This document shows positions 7,496-52,978 of a DNA stretch of 53,208 bases, piece after piece (the stretch's first letter is position 1; the number at the start of each line of letters is the position of its first letter). The stretch is from IMG/VR virus record IMGVR_UViG_2671181011_000016. One strand, given 5' to 3'. The notes below the pieces were generated by a model, which saw only the letters and a program-made list of their open reading frames with translations, had not been told where the DNA came from and did no database searches. A program made the translations under genes and the position numbers. This DNA is from a virus (Duplodnaviria > Heunggongvirae > Uroviricota > Caudoviricetes).

Positions 7496-8026
7496 TTAAC
7501 TTACAACGTCAAGGGCGTCTCTGTTGTTATTTGTGTCTATGCCTAACGATCCGACGTTTGAACCTATTTTCATTTCACCCAACAGGATCGGCACTGGTCT
7601 ACCCTGTCCCACCTTGTTTTCGATGCTGGTGTAGGTGTTGTTAGATATGGTGTTATCTTGTGCGCTTTCTGCTGATGTTTTTATCTTCATGTTGCGAGAC
7701 ATAAAGATCGAGAACGCAACGCTAACAACCGAAACACCGATCAAAATCCAGCCTACAACGCCAATCCCTGCAATACCGCCTTCCACCACTGGCGCAACAA
7801 TGACGGTAGTCCCGTCCGGGTATTTACTGTTAACCGCTGCGGGCGCGGTCTTTTCGTCATAATCCTTTCCGGCAATTCGCAAGCGCAACGGGGTGCTTAA
7901 AAACGCCTTTTTGAACTCATGATTCTGCGCAACCAGCAAGCCAAGCCCCTGCGCTGGCGTATCAACGTTTAAACACACTTTGCCGTAATATCTTCGAAGA
8001 TTGCCCGTAAATCTAAACTTGAGCAT
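7496..8026 (-). CDS. I: tail assembly protein, lambda I-like
   Basis: 176 aa; hydrophobic Gly-rich central segment and C-terminal ...VGQGRPVPILLGEMKIGSNV similar to lambda gpI ...VAQGNVLPVLYGEMRVGSRV; position between K and J. Confidence 0.65.
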   Translation of the reverse strand: MLKFRFTGNLRRYYGKVCLNVDTPAQGLGLLVAQNHEFKKAFLSTPLRLRIAGKDYDEKTAPAAVNSKYPDGTTVIVAPVVEGGIAGIGVVGWILIGVSVVSVAFSIFMSRNMKIKTSAESAQDNTISNNTYTSIENKVGQGRPVPILLGEMKIGSNVGSLGIDTNNNRDALDVVS

Positions 8027-8700
8027 TTGTCAGATCTCCATATTGAATTGGTCTGTCGAACATACGCGGGCCGCATTTGCTCGCGGCGGCTTAACAGTCC
8101 GGCATTGTCATGATGCAAAACAGTGTTATCGCCCAGGTAAATCATCGCGTGACATGGGTCAGCGCCTTTAAACGGCTGACGGATAATCACATCACCAGGC
8201 TGAATGCTTTTCGCGTCAACCATGAAAAACCCGTTCAATGGCAGGTTTTTTATGTACAGGTTTTCCCCACGCAGCCACCACCCATCGTGGCGCTCAAAGT
8301 CCGGTAGATCCACGCCGCACAGGTGATAGGCATCACGGAAAAGCGAATAGCAATCTGTTTTCCCGTGCTCAAATTTACGGCCCAACAGGTGCGCCACCGG
8401 GCGGAATTTTCTAACCCTGCCACCGGAACACAAATACCACGGCAGGCCGGAAATAACCTGCTGTTGTCGATCCCGCGCTGACAATACCAATGAATCATTA
8501 GTATGTGAGTGGAAAACGGCTGTTATAACACCCAATTCGTCAGCTTTGATATAATCGTCAGGCGAGATTTTAAAGCTGTTGTGCGGCGTTTCAGACACGT
8601 TAGCGCACGGGTAAAAATAATCGTTATCTATCACCAGCCCGCACACTTCCTCGCGCGGGTGGGCTGCCGCATAGCGAATCATTTTATCTTCAAGTGCCAT
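7969..8700 (-). CDS. K: tail assembly protein, lambda K-like (JAMM/MPN plus NlpC/P60 domains)
   Basis: 243 aa; JAMM-like HSH..D motif (AVFHSHTNDS) and C-terminal Cys-containing NlpC/P60-like part; position between L and I. Confidence 0.7.
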   Translation of the reverse strand: MALEDKMIRYAAAHPREEVCGLVIDNDYFYPCANVSETPHNSFKISPDDYIKADELGVITAVFHSHTNDSLVLSARDRQQQVISGLPWYLCSGGRVRKFRPVAHLLGRKFEHGKTDCYSLFRDAYHLCGVDLPDFERHDGWWLRGENLYIKNLPLNGFFMVDAKSIQPGDVIIRQPFKGADPCHAMIYLGDNTVLHHDNAGLLSRREQMRPAYVRQTNSIWRSDKCSSLDLRAIFEDITAKCV

Positions 8701-8702
8701 AA

Positions 8703-9407
8703 TTAACCGACCTTACTGGACCCAGGGAAGCAGGAAATCGGTAACGGATTCGGGCGCGGGAAACGCAAACGGCAACCGCTCAGGCGGTGGCTGCACTTAT
8801 CCAGCTTCGGATCACTGGTGGGTTCGTCTTTCTCAGTAGCTACAGGGCCGCCACTGTATCCGCAACCGTCGCCGCGATATTGCCATTGGCAAACGTCAGC
8901 GAGGATTGTGCGCCCTGGGATAACCGCCTTGTCAGCATCAATTGGCGTTGATAGTTCATATTGCACCTGGTCGGCTGTTTCTTCGCTCATCGCCTCAACG
9001 ACGTAAAAAGATACCGCCTCGATAGACGGATCTGCATCAGGGTTGCCATTGGGGAAGTTGACAGCGTCCAGGTATTTTACTTCCACCTGGCGGCGCGTAA
9101 CCTTCATTCCTCGCAGGTCGTTGAAATCGTTATTCATCCCGGTGATTAGCCCGCCAATGTTGGCTACAACCATTTGGGGGCGTGAGTAAACGCCTTCGTT
9201 TTTCATTTCGAAGCCAGTAGCCTCGATTGGGTAGCTGTTGTAAGTCACTCCCTTCCAGATAACCGGGCCGTAATAGCCATTCGCGCCTGAATGGAAGCGG
9301 ATAACCTCGCCACCCAGTGGCGTGAGGTCTAATTCAAACAAGTCAATTACCGCGCCGACTCCGGCATCCACGGAATCAATAATCATTTCTGTAGGTATGC
9401 TGCGCAT
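8703..9407 (-). CDS. L: minor tail protein, lambda L-like
   Basis: 234 aa; strong by-eye match to lambda gpL (RFLDAVNF.NGN..ADP, C.W.YRGD.CGYSG, DKCSK.LSGC). Confidence 0.85.
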   Translation of the reverse strand: MRSIPTEMIIDSVDAGVGAVIDLFELDLTPLGGEVIRFHSGANGYYGPVIWKGVTYNSYPIEATGFEMKNEGVYSRPQMVVANIGGLITGMNNDFNDLRGMKVTRRQVEVKYLDAVNFPNGNPDADPSIEAVSFYVVEAMSEETADQVQYELSTPIDADKAVIPGRTILADVCQWQYRGDGCGYSGGPVATEKDEPTSDPKLDKCSHRLSGCRLRFPRPNPLPISCFPGSSKVG

Positions 9408-11649: not shown

Positions 11650-11735
11650 GATTCCCCCTATAAGTTACATATTGCATACATCTTTACGCGCTTCTACGCG
11701 AAAAATGAGAAATTCATCACAAGAATTATAACCAG

Positions 11736-11777
11736 TTTACAAAATGGCTTCACATAGGGCGTGACAAGATGTATATA
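11736..11777 (+). promoter_or_regulatory. sigma70-like promoter of moron cassette B with upstream TTTACAAAATGG motif
   Basis: motif 11736-11747, -35 TTCACA (11749-11754), 17-bp spacer, -10 TATATA (11772-11777). Confidence 0.6.
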
Positions 11778-11818
11778 GAAAGCAAGAAGAAAAAGCAGTA
11801 CCGACAAAGGGGGACAAT

Positions 11819-11974
11819 ATGGAACGCTATGTGGTTGTGATGCTGAACAACGCATTCGAACAGGTGGAGGTGGCGATAGTCAAAGGCTTTGATGACGCAT
11901 TCAAATACGGTCAATTCATGATGAACGCGAAGGAAAATGAGTACCGTGATTTCTTCCTGAAAGTGGTCAACTAA
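11819..11974 (+). CDS. hypothetical protein (moron B1)
   Basis: 51 aa; RBS AAAGGGGGA; MERYVVVMLNNAFEQ... Confidence 0.55.
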   Translation: MERYVVVMLNNAFEQVEVAIVKGFDDAFKYGQFMMNAKENEYRDFFLKVVN

Positions 11975-27480: not shown

Positions 27481-27951
27481 TTATTCTTTGCGTAAACACT
27501 GCGTTTTGATGTAGCCCTGAAGTGCGGTTATCTTCGCGTCTTTCTCTTTTAGTTGTTCTCTGAGGGATAGATAAGCCGATTCAGCGTCGGGAGTGAGTCT
27601 ACAGGCGGCTCCATCAATGGCGCTGGCGGATCCGGCGGGGTCGGACACTCGCACGGGTATTGCGTTGACGCGCAACCGGATAGTACCGTTATCAATACCA
27701 GTGCGCAGATCGGCAATGTCAGATCTGATAGCTTTAATCTCATCGTGATACCTCTTATCAAGTTTTGACAGTTCGGCGTTTCGCTCCTTCATTTGCTGTA
27801 TGGTGTTACTCGCTGTTTTTAATGCGCCTTGCGTTGTCGTTAGTTCTTCCTGTAAGCGCGTTACAGCTCCCTGTGTCTGACATAGTGCAGCGGTAAGCCC
27901 GACGATAATGCAAACAACCACGGCGATGATTAACGTCTTCACCTTGTCCAT
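27481..27951 (-). CDS. Rz: i-spanin Rz
   Basis: 156 aa; N-terminal TM helix then coiled-coil periplasmic domain; directly downstream of the endolysin with overlap; contains embedded Rz1. Confidence 0.8.
27549..27743 (-). CDS. Rz1: o-spanin Rz1 (lipoprotein, embedded in Rz in another frame)
   Basis: 64 aa from ATG with RBS AAGAGG: signal peptide with lipobox LSGC, Pro-rich mature part; fully inside the Rz ORF. Confidence 0.75.
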   Translation of the reverse strand: MRLKLSDLTLPICALVLITVLSGCASTQYPCECPTPPDPPAPLMEPPVDSLPTLNRLIYPSENN

Positions 27952-28430
27952 TTCTCACCCCATTCGCAAACGGCATATTCAACATCGCGGCGGTTTACCA
28001 GGCCTTGCCACTTCTTACCGCCAGCGTATACCCAGCGCTTAAGCTGTGCGCACGCTTCTGATTTCTTGCCGTCATTGAGTAGCTTTAATAAGGTTGATGT
28101 TTTGAAGTTGGTTGCGCCTACGTTATAGGCGAAGGAATAAAGTGCTGCGCGGGTAAAATCTGATATTTCGACTTTGATATATGGGTCAATCGCTTTTGCG
28201 GTCTTATGTAGATCTTTGTTCAACAAAGCATCGCATTCTGATTGCGTGTAAGTCTTCCCAAGCATGATGTCTTTTCCGGTGTGACCGTAGCAAACAGTCC
28301 ATACACCAACAACATCACGATAAGGATCGTATTCCACGCCCTCTAATGGCTTAATCATCACCGCCGCAATAGCGATCGCCCCACCAGCCGCCGCCGCAAC
28401 AATCTTGTTTTTCAGCGATTGGCTAATCAT
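27939..28430 (-). CDS. SAR endolysin (T4-type lysozyme, GH24)
   Basis: 163 aa; N-terminal weakly hydrophobic Ala/Gly-rich SAR segment; catalytic-type E..D..T spacing ([16 protein letters not shown]); ATG abuts holin stop. Confidence 0.85.
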
Positions 28431-28631
28431 TTACTTATTCCCCATTCGCGCGTCGTGTTCCTCTTGCGCTCGCTTGTTCTCCTGTGATTTGAAGTAATAA
28501 TTAACGGCAAATGTGCCTACGGTTGATAAGATACCCACAAAGACGGCAATGTCATTGATGGTTATCGCGCCGAAAAAAGCAGTTACGGCCCCAGTCACAT
28601 ACGCACACGCCTCCCGTATTCTGTCGAACAT
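28431..28631 (-). CDS. holin (pinholin-like, two TM domains)
   Basis: 66 aa; two hydrophobic segments and charged C-terminus; resembles phage 21 S-type pinholin; paired with a SAR endolysin; RBS GGAGGA. Confidence 0.8.
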   Translation of the reverse strand: MFDRIREACAYVTGAVTAFFGAITINDIAVFVGILSTVGTFAVNYYFKSQENKRAQEEHDARMGNK

Positions 28632-28643
28632 AGATTTTCCTCC

Positions 28644-28673
28644 AACAAAACAAAAACCCGGCGCGGGGCCGGG
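28644..28673 (-). terminator. intrinsic terminator immediately upstream of the holin gene (tR'-like)
   Basis: minus-strand hairpin CCCGGCCCCGCGCCGGG followed by TTTTTGTTTTGTT, about 10 nt before the holin RBS. Confidence 0.7.
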
Positions 28674-28701
28674 TAGTTACAGTTTCGCATTGTTAGGTAA
28701 T

Positions 28702-28730
28702 ATTTTAATCTGTTTGTTTTCGACCCACAA
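28702..28730 (-). promoter_or_regulatory. candidate late promoter (pR'-like)
   Basis: minus strand -35 TTGTGG, 17-bp spacer, -10 TAAAAT, 25-40 nt upstream of the terminator hairpin. Confidence 0.45.
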
Positions 28731-28738
28731 ATACGGCT

Positions 28739-28966
28739 TTAACGGTAAGGGCCAAGCAAACGAACAAGCCATTCTTTGTATTTGGCGGCGACGTGTTTCG
28801 GTGCAAAATATCCTTGCACTTCCTTACCGCCTCGCCACTCCCTTCTAAATTCGCATTCGTTTTGATACCCCTTTCCGCTTTTACTATCCAGCCAGCAAGC
28901 AGGCGAGTAACCTTTTTCACTCCCGAACCGATGCCATATTAATGACAGCAAAATCATTTCTTCCAT
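28739..28966 (-). CDS. hypothetical protein
   Basis: 75 aa ORF; stop codon begins the 18-bp duplicated junction element. Confidence 0.45.
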   Translation of the reverse strand: MEEMILLSLIWHRFGSEKGYSPACWLDSKSGKGYQNECEFRREWRGGKEVQGYFAPKHVAAKYKEWLVRLLGPYR

Positions 28967-28987
28967 ACTGCCCCCACAAATACGGCT

Positions 28988-29164
28988 TTACCGCTTCCTG
29001 TATATCAGGCCATTATCAAGCAGCATTTGCATGTGCCAACGATCCACCATGCTTGATTCCCAGCATTTATTCTCTGGATACTGAATCATCACCTTATCAC
29101 CTTTAACCAAATAGGCGATATTAAATAACATGTGCAAATAAATACCGTCTTCGATCTCGTTCAT
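28988..29164 (-). CDS. hypothetical protein
   Basis: 58 aa; ATGA overlap with upstream gene; stop codon begins the second copy of the 18-bp element. Confidence 0.4.
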   Translation of the reverse strand: MNEIEDGIYLHMLFNIAYLVKGDKVMIQYPENKCWESSMVDRWHMQMLLDNGLIYRKR

Positions 29165-29391
29165 AGCTCGCCAACCTTTACCAGTTCACCAGCATCAAGA
29201 AATATTTTAATTGTTTCTCGCGTCGTCTTAATGATTGGTGCTACCCACTCGCCACCGCCAACACGGATACGAATATCATCACCTTCCACGCGGTAAAACA
29301 GCCTGTCGACTACTGTTGCTGCGTACACGCCATCTTCAATCATTTTTGCGCTCCTTAATGGCTCGCATGATGTTAATACGCATAGCGTCAC
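29161..29391 (-). CDS. hypothetical protein
   Basis: 76 aa ORF in a tightly packed series. Confidence 0.4.
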   Translation of the reverse strand: MTLCVLTSCEPLRSAKMIEDGVYAATVVDRLFYRVEGDDIRIRVGGGEWVAPIIKTTRETIKIFLDAGELVKVGEL

Positions 29392-29578
29392 TGAATGCGT
29401 ATATAGTAATGAAAGGCCAGAAGACTAGCTCGAACCAAATAATGCCGTCACTATCAACAGCTTTCTGAAAAGCGCCCATTAAAATGACGCCAGCCAGGTA
29501 AATGATAACTACCGCAATAATAAGGCATTCAATCATAATCATCCTCATCGTCTTCATGTTCAGCCAGGAACTCATCAA
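29336..29578 (-). CDS. hypothetical membrane protein
   Basis: 80 aa (start uncertain); two hydrophobic segments. Confidence 0.4.
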   Translation of the reverse strand: MMSSWLNMKTMRMIMIECLIIAVVIIYLAGVILMGAFQKAVDSDGIIWFELVFWPFITIYAFSDAMRINIMRAIKERKND

Positions 29579-29843
29579 CCACGCGGCAAGTCACTGGCGG
29601 GATGTATTCGAAATCATCAGAATCGAGATCAAGCGTCCGGCTGTCGCCGTCATCGTCCAGCGTATTCATCCCTAATTCACCGAAAGGGCCGTACCCAATA
29701 CAGCCCAGGTATTCGCATCCAGTAGTAAAGCCAGGGTATTCGCCTTTACAACGGATTTTGTAAGGTCTATTTGATGCGCTCAATTTTTGATGCTCCGCTT
29801 TCTTCTTCAGTAATTTTGTACTCTGCCACCAGTTCCGCACCAA
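29529..29843 (-). CDS. hypothetical protein
   Basis: 104 aa ORF; acidic C-terminus; start uncertain. Confidence 0.4.
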   Translation of the reverse strand: MVRNWWQSTKLLKKKAEHQKLSASNRPYKIRCKGEYPGFTTGCEYLGCIGYGPFGELGMNTLDDDGDSRTLDLDSDDFEYIPPVTCRVVDEFLAEHEDDEDDYD

Positions 29844-30090
29844 GCAATTTCACTTCAGCATCAGGGTAAGGATTAAGTACCAGTGATGCGAAAACAAAAT
29901 GTCTGACGTGATTCACATTATCAAGGTCTTTCACGTCAAAAGGCGGCTCAGTTAAGTGGAAGCATTTAACGTGCGCATCGTCTTCAGTAGCCACACGGAA
30001 ACATGCGCCACGCTCACCTGCGAATTGTCCAAAGTCTTTATTTTCTGGAAAAGATCCACGGAAAACTTTAACGCTGATAAATTTAGACAT
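29767..30090 (-). CDS. hypothetical protein
   Basis: 107 aa ORF. Confidence 0.4.
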   Translation of the reverse strand: MSKFISVKVFRGSFPENKDFGQFAGERGACFRVATEDDAHVKCFHLTEPPFDVKDLDNVNHVRHFVFASLVLNPYPDAEVKLLGAELVAEYKITEEESGASKIERIK

Positions 30091-30093
30091 TGT

Positions 30094-30348
30094 TTATTCT
30101 CCTTCATAAAGCACAGTAACCAGTTCAGCATCAATTAGCGTGTTATGATCTGTATAAAACCCGTGGCGCAGAATTGAGGCAAGGCCGGCCACTTTACGCC
30201 ACATAGGGGTCGATTCGTTCAGATATTCTTTCTCCCTTTTTTCGCTGTATACCAATTCATAAAACCGACCACGATTAACATCTTCAATCACGCGGATATA
30301 TTTACCATCAAATCGGCTATTACCGCGCCATAGTCTGATCACAACCAT
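30094..30348 (-). CDS. hypothetical protein
   Basis: 84 aa ORF. Confidence 0.4.
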   Translation of the reverse strand: MVVIRLWRGNSRFDGKYIRVIEDVNRGRFYELVYSEKREKEYLNESTPMWRKVAGLASILRHGFYTDHNTLIDAELVTVLYEGE

Positions 30349-30350
30349 AA

Positions 30351-30650
30351 TTAAAACTCCGCACCAGGTAAGCTACGCGCTTTGTTTACCGCATCGTGCT
30401 TTAACGATAAACTTGCGTAATAATTCATAATCCCCATATTACCGACTGGTATTTCATTATTTTCTGCCTTTATTCTTAATAACTGGTTTTTAGTGAAAAT
30501 CCTGTCTCCATCGGTGATATATAACCAGTCGCAGCGCTTACCAACTACAACATGAGATCTGCCTAAACTGTCTTTAAATTCATAATTGCAGAAGACATCA
30601 CCTTTAGGCACTTCAACAAAACAGCACGCTATGAATTTATCGCTTTTCAT
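30351..30650 (-). CDS. hypothetical protein
   Basis: 99 aa ORF. Confidence 0.4.
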   Translation of the reverse strand: MKSDKFIACCFVEVPKGDVFCNYEFKDSLGRSHVVVGKRCDWLYITDGDRIFTKNQLLRIKAENNEIPVGNMGIMNYYASLSLKHDAVNKARSLPGAEF

Positions 30651-30691
30651 GATTCAACCCTTCTGGTTTGATTGGCCATCCGGCCCCGCGC

Positions 30692-30832
30692 TTATCCTTC
30701 TTTGCCTCCTTTGAACCCCAGACACTCCGCGTATTCGTCAATGCTTAATGCTTCTTCACCTGGTGCCAGTAGTTCGAAGTATCTGGCATATAACTCAAAC
30801 ACCCAGGCAGGATATTTTGCGTTTGCGTTCAT
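30692..30832 (-). CDS. hypothetical small protein
   Basis: 46 aa from ATG with RBS GGGAGG (MNANAKYPAW...); first gene downstream of the 30865-30908 promoter. Confidence 0.45.
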   Translation of the reverse strand: MNANAKYPAWVFELYARYFELLAPGEEALSIDEYAECLGFKGGKEG

Positions 30833-30864
30833 CTTCTTGCCTCCCATCCGCCTTTCTGTGCCCA

Positions 30865-30908
30865 TATATAACAAAACGGCACTGCCGTAACAATGCCATT
30901 TTGTATAC
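30865..30908 (-). promoter_or_regulatory. sigma70-like promoter with upstream GTATACAAAATGG motif
   Basis: minus strand: motif (30896-30908), -35 TTGTTA, 17-bp spacer, -10 TATATA (30865-30870). Confidence 0.55.
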
Positions 30909-30916
30909 TTTGTGAT

Positions 30917-31740
30917 TCAGATCACGTTATTATCACAAGCGAAAGCCTCGCAACTTTCAGAACAACTACCTGAATCAAACTCTTTCTTGTTAATAATGCT
31001 GCTGCGTATCTCTTCTGTTTCCTCCAGCCTGAACATTGCTATTACGTCCTGCAATGCCATTTTGTTGCGATACATTTCCGGCTTACCTTCCTTGCAATCA
31101 TGTTCTGCAATGCAACTACAAAACTGGTCATATAGTTCAGGTTCATCCCTTGCTGCCAATGCCAACTTCTTGTTGCTCTTCTTAATGCAGAAAACACAAT
31201 TACCAAGATGTTCGGGGATCTCTAAATCAAATGACTGCCCTGACCACCAATCAATAATATCCTGCTTCTCAAAGTCACTTATATCTGCCAGATAGTGAAA
31301 ACCCTCCCTTTCGTGTAGTCTGCGTGGCTCATCTGCCCTAATACCTAACCAGCGTTCATAATTGCCTTTGCCATAGTGTTCATCACAATACTTTTCAAAA
31401 GGTAGTTGTTTCATCCTGTGAGTACAGAATGCCCCGCCGATATAAGGATGGCCATAATGTTCCAGGATTCTCCGCCACGGAACAAGGTCACATCTTATAT
31501 CATCAATACCAATGATCTCGTAACTGAATTTACCGTATTTAATTGCAGGAGGAACGCAGCGGAGGCAAGTTATTTTAATGTTAAAATGTGAGGATAAATT
31601 CTTTATGAACTCGTATGTTTTAGGGTGTTCACCCCTGTATCCATGAAGATAACCTCTGCGTCAGGGTGAATTTTCAATACCTCTAGAGTCATGCAAGCAG
31701 AAGTCCTTCCACCACTGAATGATATTACTTGATGTTTCAT
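30917..31740 (-). pseudogene. PAPS reductase-like (PP-loop ATPase family) gene disrupted by a 1-nt frameshift
   Basis: N-terminal frame MKHQVISFSGGRTSA...FMDTG stops after 45 codons; reading continues in another frame (EHPKTYEFIKN... to 30917); shift lies at a G4 run (31633-31636); a fifth G would restore FMDTGGEHPKTYEF. Confidence 0.65.
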
Positions 31741-31756
31741 AGGCAACAACCTTAAA

Positions 31757-32023
31757 TCAGAAAACCCCTTTATAATCTGCCGTGTATTTTGCCACTAATT
31801 TCCAGTCACAATAGTTTTCCATGTCGCGCGGTTGCCAGCCTCTCATGCCTACAGCACCACGCACGCCGTGGCGACGATAATTATCGTTATAGTCAGCTAC
31901 GCACCATGGCTGAAGTACAAACATATAATTGGCCTCGTTAACCAGGATCGCCATCTGCTTTCCTGTTGCCTTATCTTTCGCCCGGAAATAACTCACCCTG
32001 ATTTTCATTTTTAATAACCTCAA
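31757..32023 (-). CDS. hypothetical protein
   Basis: 88 aa ORF. Confidence 0.4.
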   Translation of the reverse strand: MRLLKMKIRVSYFRAKDKATGKQMAILVNEANYMFVLQPWCVADYNDNYRRHGVRGAVGMRGWQPRDMENYCDWKLVAKYTADYKGVF

Positions 32024-32219
32024 TCAACATTTCTTCTTCCAGGTTGGCAGGACGTTTACGGAACACGCCAGCGAAGACAAGATCTTCCAGTAGGTCTTTA
32101 CTTTTGAATAACCACTCTTTCATTACTATCCCGTCATCACTGCGATATACGACGCCGTTTTTAATAAAATAAAAAGTACGGGTGTTTGTCTGGAGGTATA
32201 GATCTTCGTAAACATCCAT
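31971..32219 (-). CDS. hypothetical protein
   Basis: 82 aa ORF; start uncertain. Confidence 0.35.
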   Translation of the reverse strand: MDVYEDLYLQTNTRTFYFIKNGVVYRSDDGIVMKEWLFKSKDLLEDLVFAGVFRKRPANLEEEMLIEVIKNENQGELFPGER

Positions 32220-32223
32220 GATA

Positions 32224-32451
32224 TTAACCCTCGACTACTTGCAGCCCGCGCCCCTTGTCGCCGACGAAGTCTGCCAGGCTGAACGTATACGACCATGCCG
32301 GATTAATGTAATGGTCATCAGCGCCAGCGGCAATTAGGTCAGCACCGTTAATCACGCAAGTTACATCATCACTATGAACGACGTTAACCACCTTACCAAC
32401 AACCTGTTTCAGTGACGGATAACCGTGATCGTGCAAGAATTTTACTTTCAT
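32224..32451 (-). CDS. hypothetical protein
   Basis: 75 aa ORF. Confidence 0.4.
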   Translation of the reverse strand: MKVKFLHDHGYPSLKQVVGKVVNVVHSDDVTCVINGADLIAAGADDHYINPAWSYTFSLADFVGDKGRGLQVVEG

Positions 32452-32726
32452 TAATCTGTCTCCCAGCGTTCAATGCTGATTAAGAAGTCACGGATAGCAT
32501 GGCGTTCGTCGCGCGTTGGTTTACGTTTCCGGTAGATCCTGAAATCGAACCATTCTTTTTCCTGCTCAAAATCCAGGTCGTAAGCAAGCGCCTCAATGTA
32601 TCCGCATTCGTGATACCAGTACGCAACGCCAGCACGAACAAAAAAGCGGGTTTTATCCCGCTTGTGCTCATAGATACGCATATTCACCCCGTTATGCAAT
32701 TGTGTAGCTGTCAACCAGCTTTTCAT
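32451..32726 (-). CDS. hypothetical protein
   Basis: 91 aa ORF. Confidence 0.4.
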   Translation of the reverse strand: MKSWLTATQLHNGVNMRIYEHKRDKTRFFVRAGVAYWYHECGYIEALAYDLDFEQEKEWFDFRIYRKRKPTRDERHAIRDFLISIERWETD

Positions 32727-32922
32727 CTTTCATTCTGGCAAGCTGTGCGATGTTCATCGTGTAGCCACCTTCTAAGAAAAACCACTCCGCAGTCCTGCGA
32801 CGAAAAGCAATATCATCATAGTGATGCGTCCATGTAATAATCGCCACGCGTTTTCCATCAGTGGCGAACATAGATAACGCATTATCAACAACGTCGATAG
32901 CCTGCCAGATTTTTAATTCCAT
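32692..32922 (-). CDS. hypothetical protein
   Basis: 76 aa ORF. Confidence 0.35.
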   Translation of the reverse strand: MELKIWQAIDVVDNALSMFATDGKRVAIITWTHHYDDIAFRRRTAEWFFLEGGYTMNIAQLARMKDEKLVDSYTIA

Positions 32923-33278
32923 GATTTATCCCCGTAGATCTTGAATAGTTCACACGCTTCCTGATTTTCAAATATATTCATATGCAGGTCACGCAGGCGG
33001 CGCATTGTGCGGAAGCGCGGCCTGAACTCCTGGCTACGTTTAATGTATTTGCCGCCAATTGAATAAATATGCCCGTATGCGTACCATCTGTTACCTACCC
33101 ATATATCATATTCTTTGCCTTCGTAATTAAATTTTATCGTTAGCTCGCCAACCTCAACTATTAACCCTTTGTCAATAATGTCATTAAGCATTTCGTCCCA
33201 TTCTTTGAGGAATGGTTGTTGATAAAAACCAAAAAGCGTATTTACAGCATGGCAGAGATAGTCAATGATTATTTGCAT
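32913..33278 (-). CDS. hypothetical protein
   Basis: 121 aa ORF. Confidence 0.4.
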   Translation of the reverse strand: MQIIIDYLCHAVNTLFGFYQQPFLKEWDEMLNDIIDKGLIVEVGELTIKFNYEGKEYDIWVGNRWYAYGHIYSIGGKYIKRSQEFRPRFRTMRRLRDLHMNIFENQEACELFKIYGDKSWN

Positions 33279-33282
33279 ATTA

Positions 33283-33495
33283 TTACCACATCATATAATA
33301 AACGTTCTCGTCAGCTAACATGTCAGCCACATCCTGCGTCATGTGTCTGGCCTCAAGGAAAAAATCCTCACTATGCCATTCCCTCACAAGCATACGCGCC
33401 CATTTACGGCGCTGGCGTTTATTACGTCGCAGATCATCAAAAGCCTTTAATGCTTTGTCGTATGCCCTTACAAGGCGCTTACGGTTACTTTTCAT
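33283..33495 (-). CDS. small basic protein, tandem paralog 1
   Basis: 70 aa; MKSNRKRLVRAYDKALKAFDDLRRNKRQRRKWAR...; about half of the first 40 residues are identical to the adjacent gene. Confidence 0.5.
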   Translation of the reverse strand: MKSNRKRLVRAYDKALKAFDDLRRNKRQRRKWARMLVREWHSEDFFLEARHMTQDVADMLADENVYYMMW

Positions 33496-33507
33496 TTTTC
33501 ACCCCAA

Positions 33508-33696
33508 TTAACCAAATAAATCCTCAGCAACAACATCATAAGCCTGATCAGCGGTTAATTTAGTATCACCAAAATTCCATTCCTTTGCTAATTTCCTGGC
33601 TATTCGTCTTCTCTTGCGCTTATTGTTTTTCAGGTCGTCAAAATAACACAAACATTTATCATACGCCCTTACAAGGCGCTTAAGGTTACTTTTCAT
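33508..33696 (-). CDS. small basic protein, tandem paralog 2
   Basis: 62 aa; MKSNLKRLVRAYDKCLCYFDDLKNNKRKRRRIAR... Confidence 0.5.
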   Translation of the reverse strand: MKSNLKRLVRAYDKCLCYFDDLKNNKRKRRRIARKLAKEWNFGDTKLTADQAYDVVAEDLFG

Positions 33697-33699
33697 ATT

Positions 33700-33999
33700 T
33701 TAAAACCTATATTGCCAATAAATATCGCAGTGGATAGCGAAAACCTTAACAGGTTCGTCACCAAACAAAGGATGCTGAATCGTCTTTATTGTGTACCCCA
33801 TGTAAGGGAGAATAAGAATCCGCTTCTTATCGTCGTTTGCAGGGTATCCCAATTTAAGAATCAATCTTGTGTAGTCGCGTCCCTCCAGACGTTTTCGCCA
33901 ATAGTCATTATAAAGCCGGTATTCCTCCACCTTCTTTCCCGCGCGTATGGCGTGGAAGTATTCACCTTTTAAATTCAAATGTAAGTGTTTATTTGCCAT
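33700..33999 (-). CDS. ASCH / DUF3850-like (PUA-fold) protein
   Basis: 99 aa from MANKHLHLNLKGEYFHAIRAGKKVEEYR, a pattern typical of ASCH-type domains; track ORF extends to 34035. Confidence 0.45.
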   Translation of the reverse strand: MANKHLHLNLKGEYFHAIRAGKKVEEYRLYNDYWRKRLEGRDYTRLILKLGYPANDDKKRILILPYMGYTIKTIQHPLFGDEPVKVFAIHCDIYWQYRF

Positions 34000-34321
34000 C
34001 GCTATGATCCTGTAAACAGTCGTTATAGCCTTCAATGTATCCAGTTATCCCAGTGTTGCTAACTGACCAATCAGCCGAACGGCGTTTGATGGCCTTGTCC
34101 ATAGTCATAGCGTCAACCGGATCTGTTAGGTCTATATATTTCCGCAATTCTGTAACTATTACCGCCCTTAATTGTTGTGCATTTGAGTACGTCCTTGCTT
34201 TGTCAGTTATTCCGTTTACAAGCTCCCTAAATTCATGATCCTTTAATTTAGGCTTCATTGTCGTTGCTCCGTCCGTAAATATGTACTGGCTCAACTGGCA
34301 CGGCTGGCAATTCACCATCAT
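33989..34321 (-). CDS. hypothetical protein
   Basis: 110 aa ORF; true start probably an internal Met (MKPKLKDHEF...). Confidence 0.35.
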   Translation of the reverse strand: MMVNCQPCQLSQYIFTDGATTMKPKLKDHEFRELVNGITDKARTYSNAQQLRAVIVTELRKYIDLTDPVDAMTMDKAIKRRSADWSVSNTGITGYIEGYNDCLQDHSDGK

Positions 34322-34448
34322 TTAACGCGCTTGCCATACCCAATATCAATCGCGCTTCTGCACCAGTGACTTTCTTACACCATGCACCGCCCGTTTTATC
34401 TTCGAACAAGATAACGGCAAACTTATCGTTTATTTCCAGCTTATCCAT
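34248..34448 (-). CDS. hypothetical protein
   Basis: 66 aa ORF. Confidence 0.35.
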   Translation of the reverse strand: MDKLEINDKFAVILFEDKTGGAWCKKVTGAEARLILGMASALNDGELPAVPVEPVHIYGRSNDNEA

Positions 34449-35170
34449 TATTCACCCCGCGTCACTCGTTTAATTTCGTTATCTGCCCGCGCCTCTTCTT
34501 TGAACAATTCAGCAATGGCGTCTTCATAGAAAACCCGGTATTTCTTCCACCATGTTGATCGGCTTACCGGAAAAACAAGCTGATTAACCGCCTGCCGGAC
34601 AAGATCTACAGGGAAACGCGAGTACCCGCGCCCGCCGCAGTGATGGCACGTTTTGAACACTGGCATTTCCGCCGCTTCACTGGCTGCTTTATCCGGTACT
34701 TCGCCACGACCCTTGCATTGTTTACAATGATTGCGAACTGTCCCATGCCCCTTGCATTTTTTGCAAAGGTGTTTTTCTCCGTATTCGTCAAACGTAAATT
34801 TATATCCGCCGCACTCCACGCAAGTTTTTTCCGTCGCGGCACTCTGGCAATAATCCCGAAACGCGAAAACGGCAACAAGAATAATGAGATCATTGCGTTT
34901 GGCCTCGTCCAGTTCCATAACGTATTCATAATCTTTTGCCATAGCCCTTAAACGCTCTGTAAGCAAAACTACGGCCTTATGTTTTTCTGCTTGTGATAGT
35001 TCCATCTTCCCTAAAAAAGCACTGTAACCAAGCTCTACGCGCGATTGCGCCATACCTGCGGCAGTTAGTGCATCCGTAGTATTAAGCGCATCCGGGGACG
35101 TGCCCCGGCTTTCATCTGATAAACGCGGCGATTTTGGGAAGTGGAATTTTAGAATTGATTCCAAATTCAT
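34448..35170 (-). CDS. zinc-finger protein with four CxxCxGxG repeats; possible antiterminator Q (phage 82/21 type)
   Basis: 240 aa; CVECGGYK, CKKCKGHG, CKQCKGRG, CHHCGGRG; lies downstream of ninG/rusA as Q does in lambdoid phages; Q assignment is positional. Confidence 0.4.
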   Translation of the reverse strand: MNLESILKFHFPKSPRLSDESRGTSPDALNTTDALTAAGMAQSRVELGYSAFLGKMELSQAEKHKAVVLLTERLRAMAKDYEYVMELDEAKRNDLIILVAVFAFRDYCQSAATEKTCVECGGYKFTFDEYGEKHLCKKCKGHGTVRNHCKQCKGRGEVPDKAASEAAEMPVFKTCHHCGGRGYSRFPVDLVRQAVNQLVFPVSRSTWWKKYRVFYEDAIAELFKEEARADNEIKRVTRGE

Positions 35171-35618: not shown

Positions 35619-35988
35619 TATCCGGTAACAGGTCGCCGCGTTCGCGAACTTTAATAAACAATCGCCCGCCTTTTACCTTCCGGCAGCGAACAATTTTTAT
35701 TGCGTCGATTTGTCCGTCATCCTTCCAGAACTCTGCATAAGTAAGACTATCAAAAAGGCATTTAGGGATATTATCCAGATCCCTGGTTCGGTTATCCGGC
35801 GGCGCAACATGAATGGTAATTGCCAGTCGGCAAGATAGGTTGATGTTTAAATTTAATAGCTCGATGATGTCTCTTACCTGCTCCCGGTACTCTTTCCCAA
35901 CCTTGCTGATATAGTGAAAACCTCGTGAATGTCGGTAATAGCGGTTATTCGATGGTGGGTAAGGCAGACTAAATGTATATTCGTTCAT
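35560..35988 (-). CDS. rusA: Holliday junction resolvase RusA
   Basis: N-terminus MNEYTFSLPYPPSNNRYYRH and RDLDN..K..FD.LT motifs match RusA by eye. Confidence 0.8.
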   Translation of the reverse strand: MNEYTFSLPYPPSNNRYYRHSRGFHYISKVGKEYREQVRDIIELLNLNINLSCRLAITIHVAPPDNRTRDLDNIPKCLFDSLTYAEFWKDDGQIDAIKIVRCRKVKGGRLFIKVRERGDLLPDIGEYETNMWGDNGTNKHCC

Positions 35989-36590
35989 GCTGCCTTTCTC
36001 CTTAAGGCGTCTAATTTAGCCTGATAGACTTTTATGATTTCCTTACATTCTTCTATCGTCCATTTGTGAGTTTCGTTGTTGTTCTCCAGAGCTACCACCC
36101 TGGCGAGGCCAATTTTTCGAATCAGCGCCGGGCGATACCCTCCGATGTTGCCGTCTAGTGTCTGGTTGCAGTGCCTGCATTGCTTGTGACAATTATCCTC
36201 GTTGAAACGAAGGTGTCCGGCGGCGGCTACCGTCCTGTAATGGCCTGCATCCCACCCGCATTGCTCACCGTAGTAAGTCCCGCATGATATGCACGGCAAT
36301 CGCGAGTCACGCTCGCGTATATAAGCGTTAAAAACGTTTTGCGCCTGTTTAATCCAGTAGCTACGCGGATTTAACTGCTTCCTCTTCCGGCTGCGCTCTT
36401 CCCGCTGGCTATCACGGCGCTTCTTCCGTTCCATAGCCTTCATAGCCTTCTCACGGTCGCGGCATAACTGGTCAAACTTCAGTTCTTCCAGACATTCATC
36501 GCTGCACCACGTTTGATTATGATATTTAGGCTCAAAAAAAACGCCGCAGCACTTGCAACGGCGTCTTATGGGTTTTTTAGGGTTTTGCAT
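35985..36590 (-). CDS. ninG: recombination protein NinG (Rap)
   Basis: 201 aa from ATG with RBS GGGGTGG; strong by-eye match to lambda NinG (PRSYWIKQAQ, RLPCISCGT, WDAGHYRT, LRFNE.N.HKQC, RWTIEECK). Confidence 0.85.
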   Translation of the reverse strand: MQNPKKPIRRRCKCCGVFFEPKYHNQTWCSDECLEELKFDQLCRDREKAMKAMERKKRRDSQREERSRKRKQLNPRSYWIKQAQNVFNAYIRERDSRLPCISCGTYYGEQCGWDAGHYRTVAAAGHLRFNEDNCHKQCRHCNQTLDGNIGGYRPALIRKIGLARVVALENNNETHKWTIEECKEIIKVYQAKLDALRRKAA

Positions 36591-36604
36591 AAAAACCACC
36601 CCGA

Positions 36605-36781
36605 TTATTTTTGATTCTCTGTTTCGTTCAGCCTTTCGGCGTGTCCGGCCCTTAGCCAATGTTCTAAGCATTCGTTGCACTCGTTACAGCCTCCTTTCTT
36701 CGTGCTGCATACATTGCACATTGCACGCATGACGCTCTCTCGTTCATAGTCGTCATGCCATTGGTAATCATCAAAAGGCAT
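36605..36781 (-). CDS. small Cys-rich (zinc-ribbon-like) protein
   Basis: 58 aa MPFDDYQWHDDYERESVMRAMCNVCSTKKGGCNECNECLEHWL...; RBS AAGGAGAG; not in the supplied ORF track (below cutoff). Confidence 0.45.
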   Translation of the reverse strand: MPFDDYQWHDDYERESVMRAMCNVCSTKKGGCNECNECLEHWLRAGHAERLNETENQK

Positions 36782-51700: not shown

Positions 51701-52128
51701 GGCAAATAAGATTTGAAATAGTAAACGACGCCGTAAAAGAAAACGCTATCAGGCAGATAAGAGAGATCCAGCCTGATAGCAAAAGCCCGCTGGTAATTAC
51801 CATCCGTGAGAAGACACGCTCACTGAGTCAAAATGCGTTGCTTTGGGCGCTATTAACAGACGTTAGCGATCAGGTTAATTGGTACGGAAAAAAGCTGTCG
51901 CCGGAAGATTGGAAAGCGGTATTTACTGCCGGGCTTAAGAAATATGGCGTTGTCCCTAACCTGGATAAATCAGGTTTTGTTGTGCTGGGTACGTCAACCA
52001 GCCGGATGAGTAAGGCTGAATTTAGCGAATTAATCGAACTGATCTACTCGTTCGGCGCGGAACATGGTGTTCAGTGGTCTGGCGATACGAAGTTAAACGA
52101 GGAATTTATAAAACGCTGGGGGCAATAA
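51697..52128 (+). CDS. ninB: recombination protein NinB (Orf family)
   Basis: 143 aa; by-eye match to lambda NinB (FEI...NAI..I..I.PD...P.V.TI.E..RSL.QN..LWA.L.DVS.QV.W.G..L..E.WK.VFTA.LK...VVPNL...GFVV.G.STSRM). Confidence 0.8.
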   Translation: MRQIRFEIVNDAVKENAIRQIREIQPDSKSPLVITIREKTRSLSQNALLWALLTDVSDQVNWYGKKLSPEDWKAVFTAGLKKYGVVPNLDKSGFVVLGTSTSRMSKAEFSELIELIYSFGAEHGVQWSGDTKLNEEFIKRWGQ

Positions 52129-52304
52129 TGGTTCGTTACTACATGGCTAAACCTACAGGCATTTTGTATAAGATTGATGGCGAATATGTTTATTACTTTC
52201 ACAATCAGGCGCGTGAGTGGCGATTATGTCACGCGCACTTTCAGCACGAAATAGAAAACCATCCTGAATATTTTATCAAAGTTGACAATGTAACGGTGGC
52301 GTAA
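52128..52304 (+). CDS. hypothetical protein
   Basis: 58 aa; ATG overlaps ninB stop; not in the supplied ORF track (below cutoff). Confidence 0.4.
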   Translation: MVRYYMAKPTGILYKIDGEYVYYFHNQAREWRLCHAHFQHEIENHPEYFIKVDNVTVA

Positions 52305-52318
52305 TTGAGGATAAGAAA

Positions 52319-52978
52319 ATGAATAAACTTAAAGTAATTGGCGTGATTAGCCATCGTACTAACCCTGAGTGTTACCCATCGTTTGAGGTAACAACATGCC
52401 GCACAGAATATAATTTTGGATCATGCTATTTAATGGGCATTCGCGCTGACACTGGCGGCACTTATTCTGTTATGGCTGCAAGCTGGAAATTTGAAAAATA
52501 CGATGATTTATCGAATAAGGATGATGACGGCATGAATAAAGAAAGTGAAGTTGTTGATGAATTAATCGAAGACGAACGCCGTGACTGCGAAACGAAACAA
52601 GAAAAAACGGAATGGAAGCCAGGAGAAAAGCCGCCGTGCGGCGTGTGGCTTGAATGTTATTATCCTGATGGTTATCTAGTTGGGATTGTAATGTTTAAAT
52701 TTGTCGGTGATAAATTCGGTGTGTACACTGAAAAAGGCAGTAAACAGCAAGAACATACTATTGATTGGGGTTTTTGTAATTATTTTTTATATGTTGACCC
52801 GAAAGAAAAAGCACTTGCTGAAATCGCGTTTGCACTTGCTATCAAAGTTATGGGTGAAGACGCGGCAAAAGAGATTGACTTTAACCATGACAATGATTTT
52901 TCGTGCGATTATCGCAATATGGCGCAAGCTATTATTGATGGATGTATCGGACACGTTGAATACACGGGGAAAAGATAA
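52319..52978 (+). CDS. hypothetical protein
   Basis: 219 aa ORF; no recognisable domain. Confidence 0.5.
   Translation: MNKLKVIGVISHRTNPECYPSFEVTTCRTEYNFGSCYLMGIRADTGGTYSVMAASWKFEKYDDLSNKDDDGMNKESEVVDELIEDERRDCETKQEKTEWKPGEKPPCGVWLECYYPDGYLVGIVMFKFVGDKFGVYTEKGSKQQEHTIDWGFCNYFLYVDPKEKALAEIAFALAIKVMGEDAAKEIDFNHDNDFSCDYRNMAQAIIDGCIGHVEYTGKR

Follow-up and report, generated by a model that had tools for sequence, protein, structure and literature searches.

Positions 30917–31740 on the minus strand of the virus record IMGVR_UViG_2671181011_000016 (Caudoviricetes; the window hereafter refers to the whole analysed stretch of 53,208 nt) encode a protein resembling phosphoadenosine phosphosulfate (PAPS) reductase in two reading frames. 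This raises the question of whether the gene is a pseudogene, whether it was broken by an error of sequencing in a homopolymer, or whether it is still expressed by frameshifting at a slippery site. The initial annotation left these three possibilities side by side, and the evidence described below selected the pseudogene. We consider it highly probable that the locus as a whole is explained by a genuine, heritable, and evolutionarily recent loss of function. The locus is an ordinary pseudogene, most likely formed by slippage, in a phage gene family that is known and non-essential.

Reading frames and family of the disrupted gene

The locus was delineated from its sequence and reading frames and by alignment with two intact alleles, L006 and L001 (see below). 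The whole ninC-like pseudogene, which belongs to the PAPS-reductase-like, PP-loop ATP-pyrophosphatase family, is 824 nt long versus 825 nt (with the stop) for the intact gene, and is one base short. From the start ATG at 31738–31740 on the minus strand, frame 0 encodes MKHQVISFSGGRTSACMTLEVLKIHPDAEVIFMDTG, followed by VNTLKHTSS and a TAA at 31603–31605. This N-terminal ORF (31603–31740, minus strand) had been described as 45 codons that carry the PP-loop and FMDTG before a stop; these features were confirmed, but only the first 36 codons, down to DTG, are homologous to the family, whereas the last nine are out-of-frame junk. The PP-loop motif SFSGGRTS (codons 7–14; 31699–31722, minus strand), which is the ATP-binding signature, is now cut off from the remaining enzyme and is the only motif that the 45-aa product retains. 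No gene on record was found for this product in the public collection searched. After the G-run, the −1 frame reads EHPKTYEFIKNLSSHFNIKITCLR (EHPKTYEFIKN...) through SGSCSESCEAFACDNNVI and ends with a TGA at 30917–30919, in agreement with the proposal that the remainder of the gene continues in another frame to 30917. This C-terminal part (30917–31630, minus strand) comprises 237 codons (E38 to I274) plus the TGA, and includes EHPxTY, C106, C119, CVFC (182/185), and SCSESCE. Insertion of one base after the G-run yields a single ORF of 274 aa, and the frame-restoring shift is −1. When the intact L006 protein was aligned with the window, one HSP in frame −1 (90% identity) abutted another in frame −3 (97.5%), with E 3e-167. 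The split of the gene across two frames is far beyond chance.

Because a start codon (ATG, GTG, or TTG) is missing from the −1 frame until 31414, a 165-aa ORF is all that ORF finders and annotation pipelines detect. It starts from the first in-frame ATG (30917–31414, minus strand) and bears the pipeline label 'prophage protein / hypothetical protein'. It contains neither the PP-loop nor DTGxEHPxTY, and upstream of its ATG there is only an immediate AGG. Judging from the motifs that each fragment lacks, both the 45-aa and the 165-aa products are expected to be inactive. Directly after the stop of the gene, a short terminator-like hairpin (ACGGC AGT GCCGT followed by TTTGTTATAT; 30876–30888, minus strand) lies in a flank that is largely kept in L001, L005, and L006. 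The hairpin might conceivably act as a terminator; the scan that detected it returned two terminator-like sites versus 1.1 by chance, which is not above chance expectation.

The description of the gene as PAPS-reductase-like was upheld by profile searches. The repaired protein matched Pfam PAPS_reduct (PF01507; 2e-9, residues 5–61 only), PHROG 33262 (2e-89), and PHROG 424 (5e-63), with the label 'phosphoadenosine phosphosulfate reductase'. The intact L006 protein matched lambda NinC (lambdap64, NP_040635.1), which is assigned to the 'phosphoadenosine phosphosulfate reductase' family, over its full length with 45% identity (276 aligned columns, E 7e-88). By tblastn, 544 phage records were matched, and 521 of them contained at least 80% of the query in one piece; many are annotated as NinC, and the identity to the proteins so annotated was 57–65%. 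Lambda NinC shares SFSGGRTSAY, FMDTGxEHPxTY, GGAFCT, HLGNC(V/I)FCIKKS, and GSCSESCE with the intact allele, and both genes are accessory ones located in the early/late regulatory region of temperate coliphages. The two genes differ in position: lambda ninC lies in the 'nin' interval between the replication gene P and the antiterminator gene Q, whereas the window gene lies downstream of a Q-like antiterminator gene and upstream of the lysis cassette. They also differ in that the window gene is frameshifted and its protein cannot be made. Among 77 family representatives, the PP-loop residues S7, S9, G10, G11, R12, and S14 are nearly invariant, cysteines 106, 119, 182, and 185 are invariant, and cysteines 59, 260, and 264 are near-invariant. 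The motifs of the NinC family (SGGRTS; DTGxEHPxTY; Cys106/119/182/185) are all encoded in the window, but they are split over two frames instead of residing in a single uninterrupted ORF for the full protein. The locus is a NinC-family pseudogene and not a functional member of the family.

The intact protein shares with CysH and APS reductase the PP-loop ATP-pyrophosphatase fold and the N-terminal ~60 residues, including DTG.hP.TY. The similarity is confined to residues 5–66, also in the matches to PDB sequences, and every NCBIfam CysH/APS-reductase model gave 19–31 bits versus cut-offs of 154–254 (TIGR00434, TIGR02057, and NF002537: 19.5–30.8 bits) and covered residues 3–62 only. CysH has its C-terminal catalytic Cys in an ECGLH motif. 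Neither ECGLH nor CGLH was found in the translation of the repaired protein, and the pattern of conserved cysteines in CysH is other than that in the NinC family. The intact protein is not a true CysH, and 'PAPS reductase' is a label of fold and not of function. The intact allele belongs to the PP-loop ATP pyrophosphatase (adenine nucleotide alpha-hydrolase) superfamily, which is characterized by a Rossmann-like fold and an SGGxxS PP-loop at the N-terminus. Its AlphaFold (AF2) model (pLDDT 84, pTM 0.85) resembles these enzymes only loosely: Foldseek matched PP-loop enzymes exclusively (CysH, APS reductase, GMP synthetase, LarE), mostly at probabilities of 0.9–1.0 but with TM values of only 0.3–0.4. 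A second group of PAPS-reductase-like ATP pyrophosphatases, SspD, DndC, and BrxP, acts in DNA phosphorothioation (PT). The PADLOC SspD profile covers far more of the protein than CysH does (residues 4–252, E 7.7e-16, 56.6 bits, in a library that has no curated cut-off). PT synthesis requires a protein with a PAPS-reductase domain together with an NTPase (PMC12914056). Partner genes (SspA/B/C, DndD, or BrxC-type; cysteine desulfurase) were absent nearby in the gene lists of L004, L005, and L006, where the neighbors of the gene are small ORFs without Pfam matches, and no link of NinC with DndC or SspD was found in the literature searched. On these grounds the intact protein is most aptly classed as a PP-loop enzyme of the NinC family. 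To our knowledge, no function has been ascribed to NinC since the lambda nin region was sequenced, and the literature searched for its function yielded only its non-essentiality.

The single-base lesion and its distribution

Three related alleles were recovered with their DNA. L006, from E. coli GCA_027553525.1 (97% nucleotide identity; protein P0001 / HDD9014601.1), is intact with 274 aa and reads ACAGGGGGTGAAC at the junction, where G5 encodes Gly-Gly. L001, on an IMG/VR prophage contig with the same neighbors (96% nucleotide identity), is also intact and reads ACAGGGGCTGAAC (Gly-Ala). L005, from E. coli GCA_048049915.1 (84% nucleotide identity), has the junction GGAGCG (Ala) and is broken elsewhere. 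The window junction, ACAGGGGTGAAC, aligns with L006 as ACAGGGG-TGAAC, and the two are identical for tens of bases on both sides. Thus, the window differs from its nearest intact allele (GGG GGT = Gly-Gly) by contraction of G5 to G4. The initial annotation had placed the lesion in a GGGG run and proposed that one extra G would restore a single frame. The run was confirmed, with its position shifted by one base to 31632–31635 (minus strand; CCCC on the plus strand) from the proposed 31633–31636, and L006 carries precisely the fifth G, although the restored protein has 274 aa and not the proposed 275. This comparison with intact homologues, which had been suggested as a check, extends to the intact alleles P0122, P0124, P0125, P0128, P0130–P0132, and P0134 of the same 90% cluster, all of which contain DTGGEHP. 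A missing C beside the run, as GGGGCT of L001 alone would indicate, was also considered and was overturned by L006 and the DTGGEHP alleles.

The intact sisters P0001 and P0123 / WP_032184075.1, the latter being identical to the L001 protein from Met3 onward, resemble the window in nucleotide sequence (96–97% identity), in neighboring genes, and in prophage type. They differ from it in having G5 (Gly37) or GGGGCT (Ala37) in a single 274-aa ORF and Tyr at position 16. Codon 16 of the window (31693–31695, minus strand) is TGC (Cys), whereas it is TAC (Tyr) in L006, L001, L005, and all close alleles. Neither the deposited phages nor 5,426 complete E. coli genomes yielded a close copy of the gene by megablast, and a contig scan of one genome per species did not find a relative; the copies of the allele were found via IMG/VR, exact-protein look-ups, and protein clusters.

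Homopolymer indels are a classic class of error, and it might be supposed that the gene is intact in the actual phage, with five Gs in the run. However, the G4/G5 run is short, and the same lesion recurs in independent assemblies: the 165-aa fragment is called on at least ten contigs of 50 kb to 1 Mb, among submitter-assembled NCBI records as well as Logan re-assemblies. The fragment has four distinct NCBI accessions from E. coli (CTU78404.1, CTV95211.1, CTX35486.1, and CTX69637.1), and in L004, a 108-kb contig that Logan assembled from run ERR178168, a stretch of 8498 nt spanning the G4 site matches the window at 100% identity. These contigs do not equal ten independent mutational events, as the carriers may be one clonal E. 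coli lineage, perhaps from one sequencing project. Sister alleles with G5 were assembled intact in comparable data. A noisy assembly would moreover have frameshifted other genes in the window. When ~88 genes of the related phage mEp010 were compared with the window, 67 matched cleanly over their full length, and a convincing mid-gene frameshift was not seen in any other gene; the gene set of this screen was a greedy one and its residual flags, judged by eye, were absent mosaic modules or N-terminal differences in start site. The recurrence of the lesion together with the clean remaining genes indicates that error-prone assembly is not the explanation, and an artefact is very unlikely.

The window belongs to the mEp021 group, as a temperate coliphage or a prophage, and shares ~91% identity with mEp010 and mEp554 across most of 24 kb. 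The ninC-like gene was absent from the deposited mEp021-group members searched, and other small genes occupy its slot in mEp010. In the window it lies on the minus strand between the gene for the Q-like antiterminator (34448–35170; PF03589 in the identical locus L004) and the holin/lysozyme/Rz genes, within a region of ~20 small ORFs without Pfam matches (27481–35170, minus strand). The rest of the prophage looks intact. No match to the integrase or the homing endonuclease of mEp010 was found by tblastn of the window, and the integration module either differs or lies outside the window. In comparison with mEp010, a stop was observed within the first 9–40 codons of three window genes, namely a mEp010_104-like small ORF (11654–11971, plus strand), a mEp010_47-like 'recombination protein' (35985–36710, minus strand), and a K-like tail assembly protein (7969–8796, minus strand). 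These genes presumably start further downstream and reflect differences in start site and not mid-gene breaks. Position 1 of the window coincides with the stop codon of a minus-strand ORF of 752 aa (window ends, 1–2259 and ~52000–53208).

Origin and tolerance of the loss

The junction residue is Ala (GCN) in 76 of the 77 family representatives and Gly in the remaining one, and the surrounding residues D34, T35, G36, E38, H39, P40, T42, and Y43 are invariant. GCT (Ala) is therefore ancestral, and G5 arose in one lineage before the contraction. The change of the conserved codon 37 from GCT to GGT took place in one sublineage of this rare accessory gene, which is carried by E. coli prophages of the mEp021 group, and it created a GGGGG run inside the invariant DTG-x-EHP motif. 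In the lineage of the window the run subsequently lost one G; the difference between G5 and G4 is observed, and replication slippage is its most likely cause. Translation consequently ends after 45 codons and the PP-loop is severed from all other conserved residues; judging from conservation, a functional enzyme can no longer be made. The phage presumably tolerates this loss, NinC being dispensable for lytic growth in lambda. The locus shows neatly, on a small scale, how a homopolymer first arises by substitution within an invariant motif and afterwards slips.

Pairwise dN/dS among the four alleles was 0.06–0.15, indicating that the intact gene is kept by purifying selection where it is present. 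The sole other private amino-acid change of the window allele is Y16C (TAC to TGC), in a column where the 77 representatives have Y in 59, F in 14, C in 1, and L in 1 (Tyr/Phe in 73 of 77), and the C-terminal part differs from the intact allele P0132 by one residue. The small number of these differences indicates that the inactivation was recent. Y16C may be the first sign of relaxed constraint, or it may be an earlier, first inactivating hit.

Lambda still forms plaques when its entire nin region is deleted, and ninC is non-essential in CRISPRi once polarity on Q is relieved or Q is supplied (PMC10695390). By analogy, loss of the ninC-like gene should not impair the present phage. Laboratory lambda itself carries a frameshift in stf (mentioned in PMC10695390), and the window locus resembles such prophage pseudogenes formed by homopolymer slippage in having a tolerated, inherited single-base indel in a non-essential phage gene. 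It differs from them in nothing of substance and is another instance. The importance of the finding is small and its value practical. Lysogens that are natural knock-outs, together with near-isogenic intact relatives, are possible material for work on the function of NinC.

Switching, recoding, and annotation of the locus

The divergent allele L005 (L005:3673–4498 of ABYCDV010000002.1), which resides in the same prophage type, was broken independently. It has a G8 run, ATTGGGGGGGGCATT versus ATCGGCGGGGCATT in the intact alleles, and reads ATT GGGGGGGG CATT where the intact alleles read ATC GGCGGGG CATT. The break results in fragments of 115 aa and 165 aa (P0127 and P0081), and deletion of one G restores the 274-aa ORF. 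That a single rare accessory gene has suffered two separate G-tract indels may be a coincidence, and the pair of breaks is the only element that hints at something beyond routine decay. It is improbable that the gene is repeatedly switched off via G-tract indels in E. coli lysogens. If it were so, the NinC/SspD-like activity would be costly or counter-selected in the prophage state, or alternatively the tracts would give low-frequency reversible switching, and either would provide the first phenotypic handle on NinC.

Reversible ON/OFF switching in its full sense would require the G-tract to work as a phase-variable contingency tract by which the accessory gene is turned on and off in populations of lysogens. 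Near-identical alleles indeed exist in both the G5 (ON) and the G4 (OFF) state, and the break in L005 is a separate G-tract change. However, the OFF state appears to be fixed in all the contigs found, and the G5 tract is a recent accident of one Ala-to-Gly substitution and is not shared by the family at large. The phase-variable homopolymers that are known mostly reach 7–8 nt or more, and the tract of G4 here or G5 in the sister allele falls short of even ~7 nt; changes between G4 and G5 occur at ordinary mutation rates in mismatch-repair-proficient E. coli. Such a switch is highly improbable at this locus.

The slippery-site frameshift of the initial annotation would mean that translation is recoded at the G-run, through a programmed −1 ribosomal frameshift or in another way, with full-length NinC made alongside the 45-aa product. 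The frames share an overlap of ~20 codons at the G-run, so that slipping by −1 within it would recover the protein, and a tRNA-Gly paired with GGG could form two of the three base pairs on AGG. Nevertheless, frame 0 reads GAT ACA GGG GTG AAC, and a heptamer of the X XXY YYZ type is absent throughout the overlap. Perfect re-pairing, from GGG to GGG, would be a +1 shift that meets a TGA at once, and in the wrong frame. In the AU-rich 100 nt that follow downstream, significant structure was not found (MFE −16.1 kcal/mol, z −1.6), and 12 of 200 shuffled sequences folded at least as well. The two-frame layout is confined to the present allele and is not conserved either, as L001, L006, at least nine other close alleles, and the 521 phage homologues are single ORFs. 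Recoding thus lacks sequence, structural, or comparative support and is exceedingly unlikely, although spontaneous low-level −1 slippage may yield traces of the full-length protein. Transcriptional slippage is dismissed because G4 is far too short.

With the locus taken as a recent pseudogene, 30917–31740 is to be annotated as one ninC-family pseudogene in place of a 165-aa 'prophage protein' with a stub left unannotated, and it should not be tallied as an auxiliary 'PAPS reductase' in functional inventories. Annotation of the relatives calls for similar care. Many public entries (in the range P0128–P0134) are 258 aa long and start at Met17 (31690–31692 in the window) behind GGAAGGA, a Shine-Dalgarno-like motif that sits inside the PP-loop codons; a start at Met17 removes the PP-loop. 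These entries were considered as further-truncated alleles, but all of them begin at Met17 and are best explained by the start choices of gene callers, that is, probably by start-site mis-calls. P0132 is a 242-aa entry that starts at Met33. The homologue in Salmonella phage S4lw (OQ660438.1) is labeled 'portal protein', an apparent mis-annotation. In Erwinia phage Midgardsormr38 (MN602881.1 / NC_070949.1) the homologue was matched in two pieces over 975 nt versus ~800 nt, a layout that suggests an insertion or another disruption.
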